Positions 7,938 to 61,963 of a stretch of 64,000 nt of DNA are shown one piece after another. The notes under the pieces were generated by a model, which saw only the letters and a program-made list of their open reading frames with translations, was not told where the DNA came from and did not search any database. Position 1 is the stretch's first letter; every line of letters begins with the position of its first letter. This DNA comes from Escherichia phage dune, in the sequence record MN850636.1; one strand, given 5' to 3'. A program made the translations under genes and the position numbers.

Positions 7938-8723
7938 TTAGTTCTTTGCGTCTAAGAAGGTAACTTCTGGTGAAGAGAAAACTGTCTTGATATCCTCATC
8001 AGTTCTTGCATAGATATAAGTATCTGCATCACTGCCAAATGTTACTGCAATCCTGTGATTGCTCTTCGACAGGTGGGTAACTAGAGCGTTACTTAGAGAC
8101 ATCTTTTCAACCGGAGGGTTACTTTGATGTATCTTACCTTTTCTTCGTCTGAAGAGGGTAACTGCGTTATCCGTGAACACAACTACACCTGCAAAGTATT
8201 CTGGTTCACAGTAGTTTTTCCAACCTGAGAGTAACTTGTGGTACATCTCTCCTTCATAGACATACAGATAGACATCTACACTCTTCATCACCTGATTGAT
8301 GATAACTATGACAGCTTGAGGGTCCAGCCCACCAATACCTGCACCAATCATAGGTAGACCAACTTTCTTCAACTGATTCACTTCACAGTATCTGTTAAGC
8401 TGTTTCAAAGATGACTCTAAAGCACTGTATCGTGCATCTTTACCAGTCTTAAGCTGAGTGTAAAGGTTAGCTATACGACCTTGTTTTAAACGTGCTACAG
8501 AGAAATTACCCAGTAAATTTTCACAGGGTTTGTGGCCTATACCACCTGCATATAGATAAACTTCTGTATCGGTCTCATATGCTTTTGGGTAAAGTTTAGA
8601 AATCTTGTCAGCGATACCTGCACCCATTAAATTCATACAGTTGCAACCGTGACCAATGATGTCAAACTTACCTTTATCAAATGCGGCAAAGATATCGCCA
8701 TTGATGATTTTTACAATACCCAT
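7938..8723 (-). CDS. Macro-domain protein (ADP-ribose binding or hydrolase fold) with about 100 aa C-terminal extension
   Basis: 261 aa; IVKIINGDIFAA, DIIGHGCNCMNLMGAGIADKI and VGLPMIGAGIGGLD resemble macro-domain signature blocks; GGGAGAG RBS. Confidence 0.65.
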   Translation of the reverse strand: MGIVKIINGDIFAAFDKGKFDIIGHGCNCMNLMGAGIADKISKLYPKAYETDTEVYLYAGGIGHKPCENLLGNFSVARLKQGRIANLYTQLKTGKDARYSALESSLKQLNRYCEVNQLKKVGLPMIGAGIGGLDPQAVIVIINQVMKSVDVYLYVYEGEMYHKLLSGWKNYCEPEYFAGVVVFTDNAVTLFRRRKGKIHQSNPPVEKMSLSNALVTHLSKSNHRIAVTFGSDADTYIYARTDEDIKTVFSSPEVTFLDAKN

Positions 8724-44674: not shown

Positions 44675-45280
<606 letters not shown>

Positions 45281-45282
45281 TT

Positions 45283-45723
45283 ATGAATACAAAAGCATTA
45301 GCAGCAAAGTTCAGTTACGGTGACACTGTATCACATTCTGAGATGGACACCTTCTTAGGTATTGTGAAGCCAACTTATCAAGGTGACATTGTTAAGTACG
45401 AAGATGAAATGAAGGCTTACGCACTGACACGGTTAAATCGACTTGAGAAGTTTATTGAGAAGCTTCTTAAAGAAGAGAAGATTTATCTGGTTGCTTCAAT
45501 GGGTGTTGGTTATCGTGTGGTTGAACCTAAGCATCAAGCAACTATTGCAAAACGCAAAATGTCTGGTAAAATTGGTCGTGCTTTAAAGCAAGCCACTCAA
45601 GCGATTGAGAATGTGAACACTATGGCGCTTAGCCATCAAGAACGTTCACGACTGATTGAACAGCAAAACCACTTAGCTGCTATGAAAGCTAACATTAATA
45701 AGCAACGTAGAAAACCTTTCTAA
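45283..45723 (+). CDS. Hypothetical coiled-coil protein
   Basis: 146 aa ORF, tightly coupled to upstream gene. Confidence 0.5.
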   Translation: MNTKALAAKFSYGDTVSHSEMDTFLGIVKPTYQGDIVKYEDEMKAYALTRLNRLEKFIEKLLKEEKIYLVASMGVGYRVVEPKHQATIAKRKMSGKIGRALKQATQAIENVNTMALSHQERSRLIEQQNHLAAMKANINKQRRKPF

Positions 45724-45730
45724 GTTGACT

Positions 45731-45757
45731 AGGTAGCCTCTTCGGAGGCTCCTTTTT
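45731..45757 (+). terminator. Rho-independent terminator (AGCCTC-TTCG-GAGGCT plus TTTTT)
   Basis: Tetraloop hairpin with downstream T-run. Confidence 0.6.
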
Positions 45758-46145
45758 AAAAGGTCTTTAAACAGGGTCTTTTAATGAGGTACGGCGCGGT
45801 TAGGTAAGGTCTGGTAGGGTAGGGTGAGGTTTGGTAAAGTGCGGGTAGTTAATCGGAGCTACATTAAAATCCGATTACATCACTTAAGAGTCTTCTAAGA
45901 GGGTTTTTAAGTGATGTTCGGTAGGGTCTGGTAGGGTAAGGTCTGGTCTGGTAGGGTCTGGTAGGGTGAGGTATGGGTAGTTAGTCTCAGCCACATTAAA
46001 ATGAGACTTACCTTTTTAAAAGGTCTTTAAACAGGGTGTTTTAATAAGGTGCTGTATGGTGGGGTAAGGTAGGGTTAGGCGAGGTCAGGTGAGTTTTGGT
46101 ATGGAAGGATGGCAGTAACCTTATAAAAAATCTGCCAAATAAGCT
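45758..46145 (+). repeat. GT-rich/hairpin composite repeat array 2 (hairpins at 45851-45876, 45983-46008, 46110-46137; conserved element at 46010-46050)
   Basis: Same unit architecture as array 1; hairpin stems differ but loops share ACATTAAAAT. Confidence 0.6.
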
Positions 46146-48008: not shown

Positions 48009-48269
48009 ATGAAAATTGAACACTGCTATGAGTCTGATGGAACACCTATCCGATGTCCACATTGTGGGTGTACAGACTTACAAGGTGAAGTAAGTGAAAT
48101 AGTCAACGGTCATATTGCTGAAGAAAGTACCCGATGCACAGGGTGTAATGAAATTATCGCTTTCTGGGCTTATGGTTCATACCAACCCTCTCCACATTTT
48201 ATCTACCATCGTAGTAAAGTTGTGAAGAGTGTCATCAACTGGTTCATTAAGAGAGGGTTTACAAAATGA
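48009..48269 (+). CDS. Small zinc-ribbon protein
   Basis: CPHCGC..CTGC. Confidence 0.4.
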   Translation: MKIEHCYESDGTPIRCPHCGCTDLQGEVSEIVNGHIAEESTRCTGCNEIIAFWAYGSYQPSPHFIYHRSKVVKSVINWFIKRGFTK

Positions 48270-48811
48270 TTAAGCTAATATTTGCAAGTGGTGAAAACGG
48301 TGAATTTGGTACTCCAACTGGTATGCCGTGGCCTCGACATAAACAGGACATGCAAGAGTTTAAGAGACTCACTAAAAATAACTTAGTAGTCATGGGTAAT
48401 GAGACTTTTAAGACTCTGGGTAGTAAACCTTTACCAGAACGTGCAAACCTCATCTTAACAAATTCTGTACCATACTTAGGCATAGACTTTGGCAAAGATG
48501 ATGTAATGTATGCTAAAGCCAGTAAAGAGTCATTTGGAGCATTTTTGAAGTATCTTGATAGCTCTATTGATGAAGATGTCTTTGTAATTGGTGGTGCAGG
48601 TATCCTTGTCAATGCTTTACCGTATGCTAGTGTGGTGTTCCATACTGTTTTCCATAAAGTTACTGAAGAGGCCACTGTGCATTTACCTTTTGAAAACTTC
48701 TTTGAGAAGCTGTATGATAACCGTGTGTTTACAAAGGTACAGTCAAAACCATCAGAGGATGGTAAAGCAACTTTTGAAATTTATGTTCCACAAGTAAAAG
48801 GACACTTTTGA
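48266..48811 (+). CDS. frd: Dihydrofolate reductase
   Basis: 181 aa; N-terminus MIKLIFA..GTPTGMPWP and VVMGNETFKTLG..PLPER match DHFR blocks; directly upstream of thyA. Confidence 0.8.
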   Translation: MIKLIFASGENGEFGTPTGMPWPRHKQDMQEFKRLTKNNLVVMGNETFKTLGSKPLPERANLILTNSVPYLGIDFGKDDVMYAKASKESFGAFLKYLDSSIDEDVFVIGGAGILVNALPYASVVFHTVFHKVTEEATVHLPFENFFEKLYDNRVFTKVQSKPSEDGKATFEIYVPQVKGHF

Positions 48812-49715: not shown

Positions 49716-49760
49716 CAAAAAAGGCTCCCGTAAAAAGGAGCCTTAAAATTTTATTTTTCA
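49716..49760. terminator. Bidirectional rho-independent terminator at the convergence point
   Basis: AAGGCTCC-CGTAAAA-AGGAGCCTT hairpin flanked by A-run upstream and T-run downstream. Confidence 0.6.
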
Positions 49761-50122
49761 GTATTCTTTGTGTTCTTTTCAGTAATAGCTTGGAGGGCTG
49801 ATACTGATTGAGCCAGATTGTTAACACTATCAGAGAATTTATCAAGAGTCTTAGTAAGCTTTGCATTCTCTCCCTTAACATTCTCTAACTGGACTTTCTG
49901 GTTCTCCATCCCTAGCTGAAGCAGCCTCATATCAGACTGTAAATCACGAATAGCTGAATAATTACTTTTGGAATAATTATCTAGCTGCTGTAACTTTGTT
50001 GTAATAGACACTTCTTGCTTACCATCCGAGACTTGCATGGTGGTATACATCCCAATAACACTAAAAATACCAACTACAATTGCACCAATATTGTTTTTAA
50101 AAGCTTCCTCTAGCCACTTCAT
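49751..50122 (-). CDS. Membrane-anchored coiled-coil protein (lysis- or tail-associated)
   Basis: 123 aa; hydrophobic N-terminus AIVVGIFSVIGMY then heptad-like repeats. Confidence 0.4.
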   Translation of the reverse strand: MKWLEEAFKNNIGAIVVGIFSVIGMYTTMQVSDGKQEVSITTKLQQLDNYSKSNYSAIRDLQSDMRLLQLGMENQKVQLENVKGENAKLTKTLDKFSDSVNNLAQSVSALQAITEKNTKNTEK

Positions 50123-50316
50123 TTATTCTCCCCCTTAAAAGCTTTTTCTAAGTTATCTACGAACTCATCATCAATAGGTGTGTCTGTTTTACTCGCAAGA
50201 TATCTTGCAAGCTTAAAGAACACTTTCTCAATCATGTATTCACTTAGAAGGGATAAAATGAGTTTCCAGAAGAAGCTACCTAGATTTTTTAGAAGAATTG
50301 CTAGGATTGTAGGCAT
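50119..50316 (-). CDS. Small hydrophobic protein
   Basis: 65 aa ORF. Confidence 0.35.
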   Translation of the reverse strand: MPTILAILLKNLGSFFWKLILSLLSEYMIEKVFFKLARYLASKTDTPIDDEFVDNLEKAFKGENK

Positions 50317-50395: not shown

Positions 50396-52747
50396 TTAAG
50401 CAGTTCTTACCCAAGCCATTAACTTGTAGAACTGGTTAGTAACACTAAATGCTGAACCAGAACCTGTACCACCAGTGTTACCACTAACTGTATGGCTGTG
50501 AGCACCAATACCAACACTGTGAGCATGGTTACCAGCAGAAGCAGCAGTACCACTTACAGAGTGGGTGTGGTCACCACCCCCATCAGTGTAACCCGGACCT
50601 GTACCGATTCTACCACCACCACCACCAGAATAGTGTGTAGAGTTCTGACCAATCCACGAGATAGCGTGGTTGTGGTGACCAGCAGATGAAGTAGAGCCAC
50701 TTACAGAGTGAGTGTGAGCACCAGTCGTGTTAGTGTTTTTTGTTCCGTAGTCAAAAGATGAAGTGGTAGCAGAAAAACTGTGAGTGTGTGAAGGCAAGTT
50801 CCCAACAGCTAACGTCACAGAGTCTGAACCACCAGTTGTAGCAACATCTGAACCATTTGCTGCTGCAATTCTGATAGTTCTACCAACACCATTGTTAAGG
50901 TACGTCCAAGTTAGACCAGGCAGTGCTGTATTAGGGTTAACATTACTGTTAAACCACGTTACAATACCTACTGGGTAGATTTTATTAAGGTCTGTAGAGT
51001 CACTTACTGCCTGTGCAATCTTCTGGTCAGTTTCTGCTTTAGTGTATGCACCAAGCTCTGAAGGGGTTGGCTTCTGTGCTTCTGTGTAAATCTTAGACCA
51101 CTTAGCTTCAAAGCCTTTACTATCTACAGATGTTCTGTACCACATCCCACCGTTCTTATACTGGAACTTTAATTGCGCACAGGCAGTAGAAGAGTTAACC
51201 CCCTGATACATTTGAAACACAAGTGCTGTGTAATCAGCATTTGTTGAGGTTACATTATATAAGCCTGTTTTAGCGTTCCATGCCACACCATCTGCATTCT
51301 GCTCTGTAGCTTGTCCTGTAGAACCTGCAACCATGAATCTCTGATTAGCTGCTGACTGAGTGAAGTATCTAGCATCTAAGTTAGACCAATCAGAAGGTTT
51401 TACCTGTCCAGTAATCTGTAGAGATTTAGACAGAAGAACTTCGTCAGCTAAATCGAGTCTTGCACCAGTCAAGTAGTTATGGAATGATGCCGTACCAGAA
51501 CCATTAGTACCACAACCGATAAACCACTTATTTGTGTTATCAGTATTCTTACCAACAATGTAAGAAGAATTATTCTGAGCCTTGCTGTAGATTCTTAATG
51601 CTTCACCATCAGATTGAATATTCTGCTGTAAAGTGAATGTGTTAGCTTCATTCTTCTTAGCAAGATTTGCGTATGAACCGATAAGAACATAACGAGAGTC
51701 AATGTTAGTCCAATCAGAAGGTTGAACTTGACCAGTTACAGTTAGTGTTTTATTGATATTAACACTTGTTCCTACAGTAATCTTGCCACTAGTTTTGTAG
51801 TTTTCTAGAGCTACGTTATCACCTTCGTTACTATTACCAATGTACCATCTTTTGACACCTGCGCTATCAATCGCTTTAATGTACAATGGTTGTGCAGCAT
51901 TGGCATTCTGTAGCCTAATTGCTTCACCATCTTTTTTGAAAACACTCAGTTTGTTGAATGTGTTAGAGCCACTAAAAGTATTATCCGCAGCTAGCTGCGC
52001 AAACCTCTGATTAGCAACTGTCTGAGTGAAGTATCTAGCATCTAAGTTAGACCAATCAGATGGTTGAACTTGACCAGTGATTTGAAAAGTTCTGTTGACT
52101 GACACCAAATTTTCAAGAATACCAATTGAAACACCAGTCTTTACATTCGACAATACAAGAGCATTTGAGTCTCTGTTATCATTGCCAAAATACCATCTAC
52201 TAGTTCCATCTGCATCTCGACCACGAATACCTAGTGGCATACCCTGTGTGTTATTCTTAACAATAAGTGCTTCATTATCAGATAGGATGGTTTGAGTACC
52301 TCTAAAGGTGTTATTTACAGCCAGTCTTGCATATCTTGCATCATTCTCTTCATTAGTTCTCATCCCAAGTTCATTAGGACTTGGCTTATTCAGGGTATGA
52401 TAAACGGTTGCAGACCTTGAAGCATCTGCAATAGTTAGTCTAAGGCCGTTTGCGTTGATTTTAAAAGTCTTTAAAACATCCCCCATAGTAATCTCAGAAG
52501 AACCTGTAGGGTCAAATACTGCCTTACCACCATAAAGTAGCTTGACAATTCCTAAGTCACCCGTCATAGTGCTACCAGCAATCTGAACAAATCTTTCTAG
52601 TTTAAAAGATGCTAAGAAGTCTTGATAGGTCATTCGACGGTCTTCATCACCCAGCATTTCAGGTCTCTTTTTAACCCTGACATGAAGAAGGTCGTCTGAA
52701 CGAATTGTATCAATTGAGTTTAATTCACTCAACTTGTAATCTGCCAT
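50396..52747 (-). CDS. Tail fibre protein with His-box (HxH) repeats
   Basis: 783 aa; repeated SHTHS, AHTHSV, GHHNHA, DHTHSV, NHAHSV, AHSHTV; conserved C-terminus shared with 52794-53942. Confidence 0.7.
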   Translation of the reverse strand: MADYKLSELNSIDTIRSDDLLHVRVKKRPEMLGDEDRRMTYQDFLASFKLERFVQIAGSTMTGDLGIVKLLYGGKAVFDPTGSSEITMGDVLKTFKINANGLRLTIADASRSATVYHTLNKPSPNELGMRTNEENDARYARLAVNNTFRGTQTILSDNEALIVKNNTQGMPLGIRGRDADGTSRWYFGNDNRDSNALVLSNVKTGVSIGILENLVSVNRTFQITGQVQPSDWSNLDARYFTQTVANQRFAQLAADNTFSGSNTFNKLSVFKKDGEAIRLQNANAAQPLYIKAIDSAGVKRWYIGNSNEGDNVALENYKTSGKITVGTSVNINKTLTVTGQVQPSDWTNIDSRYVLIGSYANLAKKNEANTFTLQQNIQSDGEALRIYSKAQNNSSYIVGKNTDNTNKWFIGCGTNGSGTASFHNYLTGARLDLADEVLLSKSLQITGQVKPSDWSNLDARYFTQSAANQRFMVAGSTGQATEQNADGVAWNAKTGLYNVTSTNADYTALVFQMYQGVNSSTACAQLKFQYKNGGMWYRTSVDSKGFEAKWSKIYTEAQKPTPSELGAYTKAETDQKIAQAVSDSTDLNKIYPVGIVTWFNSNVNPNTALPGLTWTYLNNGVGRTIRIAAANGSDVATTGGSDSVTLAVGNLPSHTHSFSATTSSFDYGTKNTNTTGAHTHSVSGSTSSAGHHNHAISWIGQNSTHYSGGGGGRIGTGPGYTDGGGDHTHSVSGTAASAGNHAHSVGIGAHSHTVSGNTGGTGSGSAFSVTNQFYKLMAWVRTA

Positions 52748-52793
52748 TATAAATTTTCCTCTTAAAAGGGGCTATACAGCCCCTGTAAAGAAA

Positions 52794-53942
52794 TTAAGCT
52801 GTTCTCTGCCATACATACAATACGAAGGATGGCTGTTCAACACTAAATGCTTGACCAGAACCAGTTGTGCCAGTTGTGCCAGAGTGCGAATGCTCACCTG
52901 CTCCGGTTACTGTCACTGTTGCTGAGTGGTTGTGGGAACCAATTGCAACAGAATGGCTGTGAGCACCAATCCCAACTGTGTGATTATGCGCACCAATTGC
53001 TACAGAGTGAGTGTGGTTATTAGCTGTTGTCAGTGTAGCTCTTGGGTCATAGCTTGCCCCCTCAACCGATAAACCTCTCCAACCACCATCAGCATAACCA
53101 CGATTAATGAATGTTGTTTGTGTTAAACCAGCGGCACTGGTTGTTCTGTTACCATAGTCGTAAGTAGATACAGTTTTGGTTCCATAGTCAAATGTTGTAG
53201 TCCCTTTAGTACCATAGTCAAAAGCACTGATAGATGCCGTTGCACCATGAGTGTGACCACCACCAGTGACATACACTGAGTGAGTATGTGCAGGAATGTT
53301 GTTAACTGTCAGTGCAGTAGTCTGCGAACCAAACGTTGAACCAACTGGCCTAGAAGCACTATCATAACCTACAAGTGCTCTTCCTTTTGAAACTAACTCC
53401 CAAGTACCTCCACAAATTAAATATGTAGAAGGGTTTGCAGGATTCATAGAGAGATGGATAGTACCTACTGGATAAGAAGCCTGAACAGCCTTGTACAAGT
53501 TATTTACTGCTCTTGCTGTAGCATACTTATCTGCATCCTCATTATAAAGGTTAGATGTCACCCAGTTCTGAACATTACTTAACCCAACCTGTGCCTTAGT
53601 GGTGTTGTGTGGGTTGCTCTTATCATCAATATGTTGTTGAATAAGATTATTAACCTCTTCTGAAGACATAATCTGTAGATTTGCTCTTGCCTCAGCTACA
53701 TTAACAATGTCTGATAAGTTATTTTCAGCAACTAACTGTAGAGCATTAATAACGTTATCTAAACCAATTTGTGTCTTAGTAACACCATGAGGATTATTTC
53801 TTAGGCTTGAGTGTGGGGCAAGTAATTGCTCAAGAGTACATCTCTTATCCTCGATACCCTGTTTAAGATGGAAGATATCACTAAGGTCAATTGGTAAGGC
53901 TGCTTGAGGCAAGGCACTAATTTGAATTTCACCTACTGCCAT
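52794..53942 (-). CDS. Tail fibre protein paralog with His-box repeats
   Basis: 382 aa; AHTHSV, GHTHG, NHTHSVAIGAHNHTVGIGAHSHSVAIGSHNHS; C-terminal AFSV..W.RTA shared. Confidence 0.65.
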   Translation of the reverse strand: MAVGEIQISALPQAALPIDLSDIFHLKQGIEDKRCTLEQLLAPHSSLRNNPHGVTKTQIGLDNVINALQLVAENNLSDIVNVAEARANLQIMSSEEVNNLIQQHIDDKSNPHNTTKAQVGLSNVQNWVTSNLYNEDADKYATARAVNNLYKAVQASYPVGTIHLSMNPANPSTYLICGGTWELVSKGRALVGYDSASRPVGSTFGSQTTALTVNNIPAHTHSVYVTGGGHTHGATASISAFDYGTKGTTTFDYGTKTVSTYDYGNRTTSAAGLTQTTFINRGYADGGWRGLSVEGASYDPRATLTTANNHTHSVAIGAHNHTVGIGAHSHSVAIGSHNHSATVTVTGAGEHSHSGTTGTTGSGQAFSVEQPSFVLYVWQRTA

Positions 53943-53944
53943 TA

Positions 53945-61963
<8,019 letters not shown>

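Follow-up and report, generated by a model that had tools for sequence, protein, structure and literature searches.

Two adjacent minus-strand genes of Escherichia phage dune (MN850636.1) most probably encode the short and long tail fibres (STF and LTF) of a Felixounavirus, each a trimer with a receptor-binding tip of the T4 gp37 type and with a C-terminal tail that would be a structurally constrained closing strand (probability of about 0.9 for this reading). Fibres and tips of this kind are already known. The C-termini of Felix O1 gp76 and gp77 were reported as homologous to T4 gp37 along with the genome in 2010 (PMC3185647), and the collar, HxH-bearing needle and head of both Bas63 fibres were described from cryo-EM by Hodgkinson-Bean et al. 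in 2025 (PMC12609058).

Locus and gene assignments

The window, which is the whole 64,000-nucleotide stretch of DNA analysed, matched 242 phage records, the best at 95%, and is from the genome of a Felixounavirus, a Felix O1-like coliphage. The two open reading frames named in the original prediction were both found at their expected positions on the minus strand. The gene order was that of Bas63 (Escherichia phage JohannRWettstein), namely wedge 2, wedge 1, LTF platform, STF, LTF and two small genes, and the lengths of the neighbouring genes (100, 285 and 489 aa) matched those of Bas63 exactly. The features are listed below with their basis in brackets.

49721..49744 (.), intrinsic-terminator-like hairpin, bidirectional (stem and T-run)
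49751..50122 (-), 123-aa protein with an N-terminal TM segment (ORF list, hydropathy)
50119..50316 (-), 65-aa protein with an N-terminal hydrophobic/amphipathic segment (ORF list; phrog_402, unknown function)
50396..52747 (-), LTF gene, 783 aa (ORF list, phrog_4277, orthology to Bas63 gp27)
50399..50464 (-), LTF C-terminal tail GSGSAFSVTNQFYKLMAWVRTA, aa 762-783 (conservation)
50492..50986 (-), LTF collar (aa ~588-657) and needle/head (aa 654-752) (2XGF alignment, HxH)
50993..51307 (-), LTF gp37_C domain, aa 481-585, variable and resembling phage Mu tail fibre S (PF12604)
51428..52315 (-), LTF shaft repeats R1-R3 (PF20744, DNA repeats)
51428-51664 (-), LTF shaft R3, aa 362-440 (PF20744)
51728-51964 (-), LTF shaft R2, aa 262-340 (PF20744)
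52088-52315 (-), LTF shaft R1, aa 145-220 (PF20744)
52328..52747 (-), LTF N-terminal conserved region, aa 1-140, including the baseplate-binding domain (conservation)
52794..53942 (-), STF gene, 382 aa (ORF list, orthology to Bas63 gp26)
52797..52862 (-), STF C-terminal tail GSGQAFSVEQPSFVLYVWQRTA, aa 361-382 (family-wide conservation)
52884..53288 (-), STF needle and head, aa 219-353, with seven HxH (HxH positions, 2XGF alignment)
52998-53177 (-), STF hypervariable head, aa ~256-315 (entropy)
53280..53516 (-), STF collar domain, Gp10_C-like, aa ~143-221 (PF21939, T4 gp10 match)
53945..54247 (-), 100-aa protein (synteny and equal length with bas63_0025; phrog_4141)

From sequence comparison STF was assigned as the orthologue of Bas63 gp26 (98% identity) and Felix O1 gp76, and LTF as that of Bas63 gp27 and Felix O1 gp77, with Sf14 gp52/gp53 as a further orthologous pair in the same gene order. 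LTF was 69% identical to gp27 overall, approximately 97% at both ends and nearly identical over the tip (aa 560-783). STF matched the tail fibre family phrog_2097 (E 1e-127) and phrog_4277 matched LTF end to end (1328 bits), while NCBIfam held no family for STF, LTF or the small proteins, save for noise-level coiled-coil matches. The 100-aa protein was likewise assigned to Bas63 gp25, described as the LTF platform and a T4 gp9-like attachment point in PMC12609058. These assignments have value for annotation, as many GenBank records give both fibre genes merely as 'tail fiber' and the record of Bas63 itself names the short fibre 'long tail fiber protein'.

The hairpin, with a 9-bp stem including five GC pairs followed by a minus-strand T-run and a weaker plus-strand mirror, is terminator-like and would close both the minus-strand late operon (baseplate, STF, LTF, and the 65-aa and 123-aa genes) and the convergent thyA. 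Promoter-like sites were not above chance level, and no tRNA genes were found within the 64-kb window.

A histidine-rich tip of the T4 gp37 type

Seven HxH motifs were counted in STF (aa 219, 230, 310, 319, 328, 337 and 351), two before the head region and five after it, and six in LTF (aa 654, 678, 692, 727, 741 and 750), three on either side of the head, where an extra histidine at 691 makes an HHxH of residues 691-694. The repeated motifs that had been predicted were therefore present in both proteins, and the string quoted for them, NHTHSVAIGAHNHTVGIGAHSHSVAIGSHNHS, occupies aa 309-340 of the 382-aa protein as a periodic repeat of 9 residues or 27 nt (repeat family D2). The needle of T4 gp37 has seven HxH pairs on its outgoing and returning strands. 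The same numbers as here, seven and six with the HHxH included, are given for the Bas63 fibres in PMC12609058.

The C-termini of STF and LTF aligned with each other over approximately 200-230 residues (32% identity, E 7e-16), a similarity reaching far outside the tail, and the proposed paralogy holds for this C-terminal tip. As the tips are only 32% identical overall, they would be old paralogues. Searches with phmmer matched LTF aa 652-762 (E 2.7e-13) and STF aa 146-352 (E 3.2e-14) to the T4 gp37 tip structure, PDB 2XGF. In an alignment of STF, LTF and T4 gp37 the HxH pairs, the FDYGTK repeat and the VGIGAH-H-V string were invariant, and all three proteins terminate in R-x-A, which in T4 as here follows a hydrophobic strand. 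On these alignments the shared C-terminal module is assigned as a homologue of the T4 collar-needle-head tip, so that the T-even-like His boxes foreseen in the original prediction reflect homology beyond resemblance, in agreement with PMC12609058.

A collar of the gp10/gp12 type appears to precede the needle clearly in STF and marginally in LTF. STF scored 65.2 bits against Pfam Gp10_C (PF21939; cutoff 27) over aa 154-260, T4 gp10 matched its aa 143-221, and its collar also matched PDB entries 2fkk and 5hx2. Of the 139 positions in the profile the Gp10_C match covered only 3-116, since gp10 continues at the point where the fibre has its needle inserted. Full-length LTF fell short of the cutoff at 23.4 bits, and its isolated collar construct reached 29.2 bits. 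The phage tail collar domain PF07484 was absent from STF and LTF at E<=0.01 and from the collar constructs at E<=1; it replaces Gp10_C in some distant homologues.

The entropy of STF reached its maximum at aa 256-315 among 48 homologues, and the head region was rich in indels across 30 diverse homologues. Neither head domain is related in sequence to that of T4 gp37. The T4 tip also differs in being carried on a four-protein fibre, whereas the tips here end much shorter single-gene fibres of 382 and 783 aa. T4 uses OmpC/LPS as receptor, while the receptor expected here is the LPS core, as in Bas63, whose infection depends on it.

The needle was beyond the reach of the AlphaFold2 monomer of STF (30-sequence alignment; mean pLDDT 55, pTM 0.27), which is the result expected of an intertwined trimer. 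Its only confident parts were the collar (block pLDDT 67-88) and the last ~22 residues (80-84), the latter with a predicted strand at aa 376-380. A Foldseek search of the PDB with this poor model returned only weak gp10 matches (best E 0.023), and 2XGF was not among the matches. According to PMC12609058, the density of the Bas63 fibres is too weak for side chains and their models are fitted AlphaFold predictions, in which the chain turns round at the head and runs back as far as the collar.

In the arrangement proposed, each fibre trimer would dock on the baseplate through its N-terminus and end in a tip made of a Gp10_C-like collar, a long intertwined beta-needle and a small distal head, the part that varies most and that would be expected to contact the receptor. 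The HxH side chains of the three chains would face inward and coordinate a row of metal ions. Bartual and colleagues reportedly found in 2010 that the T4 gp37 tip (2XGF) is a homotrimer with octahedral Fe2+ along the needle axis, and by analogy the histidine-rich needle of both fibres probably binds iron. Each chain would run out to the head, double back through the needle and terminate at the collar, its last ~22 residues (GSGxAFSV...W.RTA) acting as a closing strand of the collar and needle base. Structural constraint, not recent exchange of DNA, would maintain this tail in the two paralogues and their distant relatives alike.

The shared C-terminal tail and competing explanations

The tail had been described as near-identical over about 20 residues. 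A shared motif was confirmed, at a lower identity than that description implies, as GSGSAFSVTNQFYKLMAWVRTA of LTF and GSGQAFSVEQPSFVLYVWQRTA of STF agree at 12 of 22 positions (55%). Residues G361, G363, S372, W378, R380 and A382 of STF showed little or no variation among 30 diverse homologues, and the tail was retained in homologues encoded by phages of Erwinia, Yersinia, Pectobacterium and Hafnia as well as in other distant ones. In LTF it was approximately 99% conserved among 120 homologues. Constructs of collar plus tail with the needle deleted were compared with Pfam, and in them the Gp10_C match again went no further than position 81-83 of the 139 in the profile; appending the tail to the STF collar construct raised the score from 56.9 to 66.4 bits with a match that did not reach the tail. 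The likeliest role of the tail is that of a closing strand that reaches the collar again once the chain has doubled back. As an alternative to recombination the prediction had also offered a common assembly element, a wording that comes near to this structural explanation.

The shared terminus had been taken as a mark of recombinational exchange of modules, that is, as the trace of recent recombination between STF and LTF or as a portable homology arm for swapping tips. The same end motif in both genes, with a 9+13-nt identical stretch (GGTTCTGGT..AGCATTTAGTGTT), is consistent with such exchange, the ~100% conserved sequence downstream of LTF could act as a 3' homology arm, and blocks of the LTF head domain (aa 698-758) differ modestly between phages (identity 0.80-0.89). 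Aligned in frame, however, the tails were identical at only 45 of 69 nucleotides (65%), and the longest exact word common to the two genes was 18 nt and lay outside the tail in the IGAHSH repeat. The age of the paralogous tips, the retention of the tail across the family and the location of strong breakpoints in the LTF shaft also stand against exchange at this point. The tail would therefore not be a footprint of recent recombination, a reading that is largely refuted and now very improbable. An explanation of the HxH strings as low-complexity or compositional repeats with no role in metal binding is scarcely credible. G, S, T and H are abundant in this region, which is also internally repetitive, but composition-preserving shuffles contained on average 0.99 (STF) and 0.35 (LTF) HxH and none of 20,000 reached the observed counts. 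The histidine pairs were also unchanged or almost unchanged across the 30 diverse homologues, unlike the variable residues around them, and they align position by position with the motifs of the crystallised T4 tip. A low-complexity origin was rejected on the shuffles and the conservation.

The tail might instead serve as a docking element for a dedicated chaperone, or as a cleaved intramolecular chaperone like those of endosialidase and T5 pb1, kept in both fibres through a common assembly factor. T4 gp37 and gp12 require chaperones (gp57A, gp38), two conserved and co-transcribed small genes lie directly downstream of LTF, and no other short element shared by the two fibres is as well conserved as the tail. 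Known intramolecular chaperone domains are of approximately 100-150 aa with a conserved cleavage serine and could not be held in a tail of 22 aa, and the equivalent residues of T4 gp37 are present in the crystallised 2XGF chain (a 242-residue construct). The downstream proteins have hydrophobic N-terminal segments and do not resemble T4 gp38 in sequence, and no chaperone family was matched in Pfam, PHROGs or NCBIfam. A chaperone-related function of the tail is highly unlikely. T4 differs in that no gp38-like gene adjoins LTF here, and for that reason fibre assembly may differ from that of T4; dependence on such chaperones belongs to the biology of T4 and is not a defining property of the tip fold.

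The two small genes, at the predicted coordinates, would be co-transcribed and encode putative membrane proteins. Each product has one N-terminal hydrophobic segment, whereas the coiled coil ascribed to the 123-aa protein was represented only by weak matches to coiled-coil families, all below threshold. The Kyte-Doolittle 19-mer maximum was 1.56 at aa 3-21 in the 65-aa protein, which is conserved in 232 phage records, and 1.62 at aa 12-30 in the 123-aa protein. Many Felixounavirus records label the latter 'holin' or 'putative holin', by annotation only, and Felix O1 gp79, encoded at the same position, is among listed holin candidates (PMC3185647). Neither T4 gp38 (E 0.077 over 33 aa) nor T4 holin t resembled the 123-aa protein in sequence.

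Variation in the long fibre shaft

The N-terminal region of LTF (aa 1-140) was 0.91-0.99 identical to the window per 20-aa block among 120 homologues. The shaft that follows contains three stretches matched by the gp37_trimer family PF20744 (E 6e-60) together with direct DNA repeats (families D3, D5 and D7), and ends in the gp37_C domain (PF12604, E 1.7e-18; PDB 8ju3, E 3.6e-17). Phage Mu tail fibre S (8ju3), PF12604/PF20744 and T7 gp17 (4a0u) matched LTF aa 381-585. These modules lie in the LTF shaft upstream of the T4-type tip and not at the distal end of the fibre.

Between phages the shaft was a block-wise DNA mosaic with strong breakpoints in the shaft and not in the tip. R1-R3 were hypervariable with conserved linkers between them, each repeat occurring in 16-18 sequence types that assorted independently, and the gp37_C domain occurred in 22. 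The shaft (aa ~145-560) shared only ~40-65% DNA identity with Bas63, and the LTF of the window has another set of cassettes. Recombination does affect this locus, in the shaft and not at the C-terminal tail, and the shaft domains behave like cassettes that are exchanged independently between conserved linkers.

A tentative extension, which we consider possible but somewhat doubtful, is that the three PF20744 beta-helix repeats and the gp37_C domain are independently exchangeable cassettes, with the conserved linker repeats as crossover sites and cassettes even switching repeat position, and that diversification in these phages is determined mainly by the shaft and not by the His-box tip. Variability of LTF is noted in the available portion of PMC12609058, where host recognition and escape from defence are raised as possibilities and cassette shuffling is not shown. 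If the extension is correct, shaft cassettes could serve in lateral recognition of the host surface (O-antigen or LPS) or alternatively give escape from a fibre-sensing defence system. Within the genus, phages differ in the LTF shaft cassettes and the STF head and share a conserved scaffold of His-box tip and tail, and this is relevant where the host range of Felix O1-like phages is engineered for therapy or diagnostics.

The fibre pair and its published relatives

Both tail fibre reading frames of the original prediction were recovered at exactly the predicted coordinates on the minus strand, within a unit comprising the following features.

Features of the fibre locus
52794-53942, minus strand: short tail fibre (STF), 382 aa
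50396-52747, minus strand: long tail fibre (LTF), 783 aa
49751-50316, minus strand: small membrane-protein genes (65-aa and 123-aa ORFs), co-transcribed with the fibres
49721-49744: strong, bidirectional terminator-like hairpin with a T-run, between thyA (plus strand) and the late fibre operon (minus strand)

A megablast search with the 3.5-kb fibre stretch matched 242 phage records, nearly all of them Felixounavirus (Felix O1-like) phages of Escherichia, Salmonella, Citrobacter and Shigella, and the closest record matched at 95% across the whole stretch; the genes carry tail fibre annotations. Gene order around the fibres was the same as in Escherichia phage JohannRWettstein (Bas63, MZ501086.1), with baseplate proteins, a 100-aa protein, STF, LTF and two small ORFs all on the minus strand. 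The unit faces the convergent thyA/DHFR genes, against which it is closed on the thyA side by the terminator-like hairpin. In the 2025 Bas63 cryo-EM paper (PMC12609058) the 100-aa, 285-aa and 489-aa neighbour proteins are the LTF platform, wedge 1 and wedge 2; gp26 is the 430-Å short tail fibre and gp27 the 630-Å long one.

STF was 98% identical to gp26 and LTF 69% identical to gp27, with the N-terminal ~140 and last ~220 residues of the latter nearly identical. As early as 2010, authors of the Felix O1 genome (PMC3185647) noted that the C-termini of gp76 and gp77 resemble T4 gp37, and they detected gp77 in the virion proteome. The fibre pair is thus orthologous to published, structurally described fibres, and the prediction, sound in substance, was already known from these two reports. 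Labels in the Bas63 GenBank record run opposite to the structural naming of the cryo-EM paper: the 382-aa short fibre (7402-8550) appears there as 'long tail fiber protein', the 783-aa one just as 'tail fiber protein'.

His boxes and the shared C-terminal tip

The proposed likeness to T-even metal-binding fibre tips held as homology, as both C-terminal regions matched the T4 gp37 receptor-binding tip crystal (2XGF; E 2.7e-13 and 3.2e-14), and metal binding is predicted here. When both fibres were aligned with T4 gp37, the three chains proved invariant in the FDYGTK repeat, in the His pairs and in VGIGAH-H-V, and each of them ended in R-x-A. STF also matched the collar-type C-terminal domain of T4 gp10 (Gp10_C, 65 bits; Pfam cutoff 27), for which LTF fell narrowly below the same cutoff (23.4 bits). 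LTF contained a gp37_C domain (E 1.7e-18) and, in three copies, gp37_trimer (E 6e-60); these modules resemble T7 gp17 and fibre S of phage Mu. Both proteins fell in tail-fibre families of PHROGs, phrog_4277 covering LTF end to end.

The His-box string quoted in the prediction was present in STF, where it forms part of a periodic repeat with a unit of 27 nt (9 codons). STF carried seven HxH motifs and LTF six plus an extra His making HHxH at 691-694, equal to the numbers published for the Bas63 fibres (PMC12609058). Composition-preserving shuffling gave means of 0.99 (STF) and 0.35 (LTF), and the observed counts were reached in 0 of 20,000 shuffles.

Paralogy of the two fibres was upheld by the alignment of their C-terminal ~230 residues (32% identity, E 7e-16), a likeness extending beyond the last ~22 residues (the tail). 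A tail motif is indeed common to both, though not near-identical as had been claimed: GSGSAFSVTNQFYKLMAWVRTA in STF and GSGQAFSVEQPSFVLYVWQRTA in LTF shared 12 of 22 residues and 45 of 69 in-frame nucleotides (65%). The longest exact word common to the two genes (18 nt) was located in the IGAHSH repeat, outside the tail.

Among 30 diverse STF homologues (identity down to 28%, including Erwinia, Yersinia, Hafnia and Pectobacterium phages), G361, G363, S372, W378, R380, A382 and the His pairs were invariant or nearly so. The stretch that separates outgoing from returning needle strands had many substitutions and indels. Over the STF family, variability was highest in the head region (aa 256-315). 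The last 43 LTF residues were ~96-99% conserved in 120 homologues. This sequence pattern is consistent with constraint acting on a structural element. Since the Bas63 description (PMC12609058) has the chain doubling back at the head and then returning to the collar, we infer that the tail is a closing strand at the collar/needle base. An AF2 monomer of STF was poor overall (pLDDT 55), its sole confident parts being the collar and the last ~22 residues, and Foldseek gave weak gp10 similarity only. The T4 gp37 collar reportedly consists of residues 811-861 plus 1016-1026. In a construct with the needle removed, joining the tail to the collar left the Pfam Gp10_C match no longer than before.

Recombination in the LTF shaft

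The proposal that receptor-binding modules are exchanged by way of the common termini was not supported for the tail, given its DNA divergence and lack of a long common word. Recombination at this locus is evident, but elsewhere than in the tail. The window was 93-100% identical to Bas63 across roughly 12 kb of a 13.5-kb comparison, the exceptions being a left-hand variable stretch (45396-45995) and, as the main one, a block at 51096-52295 (LTF aa ~150-550) with 42-65% identity, sharp edges and flanks of 93-100%. Within this block an island of 85% identity fell on a linker. The shaft comprises repeats R1, R2 and R3 (gp37_trimer) and the gp37_C domain, and cassette sharing was compared with four further genomes.

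LTF shaft cassettes of four genomes relative to the window
warpig: common, aa 338-548 (91-100%); different, aa 158-338 (44-66%)
LinBro: common, aa 248-338 only (86-99%); different, other shaft domains
LNA1: common, aa 248-548; different, most of aa 158-218 (60-83%)
skuden: common, no shaft domain; different, all four shaft domains

In all four genomes identity was at least 89% for STF and for most of the LTF tip, the sole lower part being LTF head blocks (0.80-0.84 at aa 698-728 in skuden and LinBro). Other Felixounavirus genomes had single shaft cassettes in common with the window in varying combinations, with breakpoints on conserved linkers. Among 120 LTF homologues each shaft domain occurred as 16-22 types (80% identity). 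The types formed 78 different combinations, and for many type pairs all four combinations were seen.

The linkers are repeated within the LTF gene, as in an 88-nt direct repeat (85% identity; 51336-51423 and 52002-52089) encoding TGQV(Q/K)PSDWSNLDARYFTQ..ANQRF, a plausible candidate substrate for cassette exchange. In a comparison using window aa 141-222 (R1) and 358-442 (R3), a near-same cassette with the core ...SNTFSGTQNIQGDANLLRLRNQNA..QYIEGVNLDGSARWWVGIGSNGSDEVKLYNNKY... was located at R1 of one homologue and R3 of another, while no cross-position matches were found for R2 among the homologues compared. At the sequence level this points to ectopic exchange from one repeat position to another. 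The Bas63 paper (PMC12609058) describes the beta-helix repeats as unexpectedly variable, and its suggested explanations are tolerance of mutations, variable host recognition or escape from defence. Cassette-wise assortment adds some detail to the variability described there, and the shuffled shaft is the sole part that might reward more work.

Small downstream genes and other variable sites

The 65-aa and 123-aa ORFs were conserved in 232 phage records, with DNA identities of 81-99%; each protein has one N-terminal hydrophobic segment and falls in a function-unknown PHROGs group. Many records label the 123-aa gene 'holin', a putative assignment, and in the Felix O1 paper (PMC3185647) gp79 was just one among several holin candidates picked on generic criteria. 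Neither T4 gp38 nor T4 holin t showed similarity to the 123-aa protein.

Two further ORFs sit downstream of a 378-aa ORF that is taken to be DNA ligase by synteny with Bas63.

ORFs downstream of the presumed DNA ligase ORF
44678-45280, plus strand: 200-aa ORF, phrog_4652 (function-unknown group)
45283-45723, plus strand: 146-aa ORF, phrog_5926 (function-unknown group)

Because the window did not align with Bas63 at these ORFs (42-49% identity), they are read as a variable accessory island. A local dip to 73-86% against Bas63, with 93-100% elsewhere in the surroundings, was located at 48096-48295, where an 86-aa zinc-ribbon-like ORF (48009-48269) adjoins the beginning of the DHFR gene.
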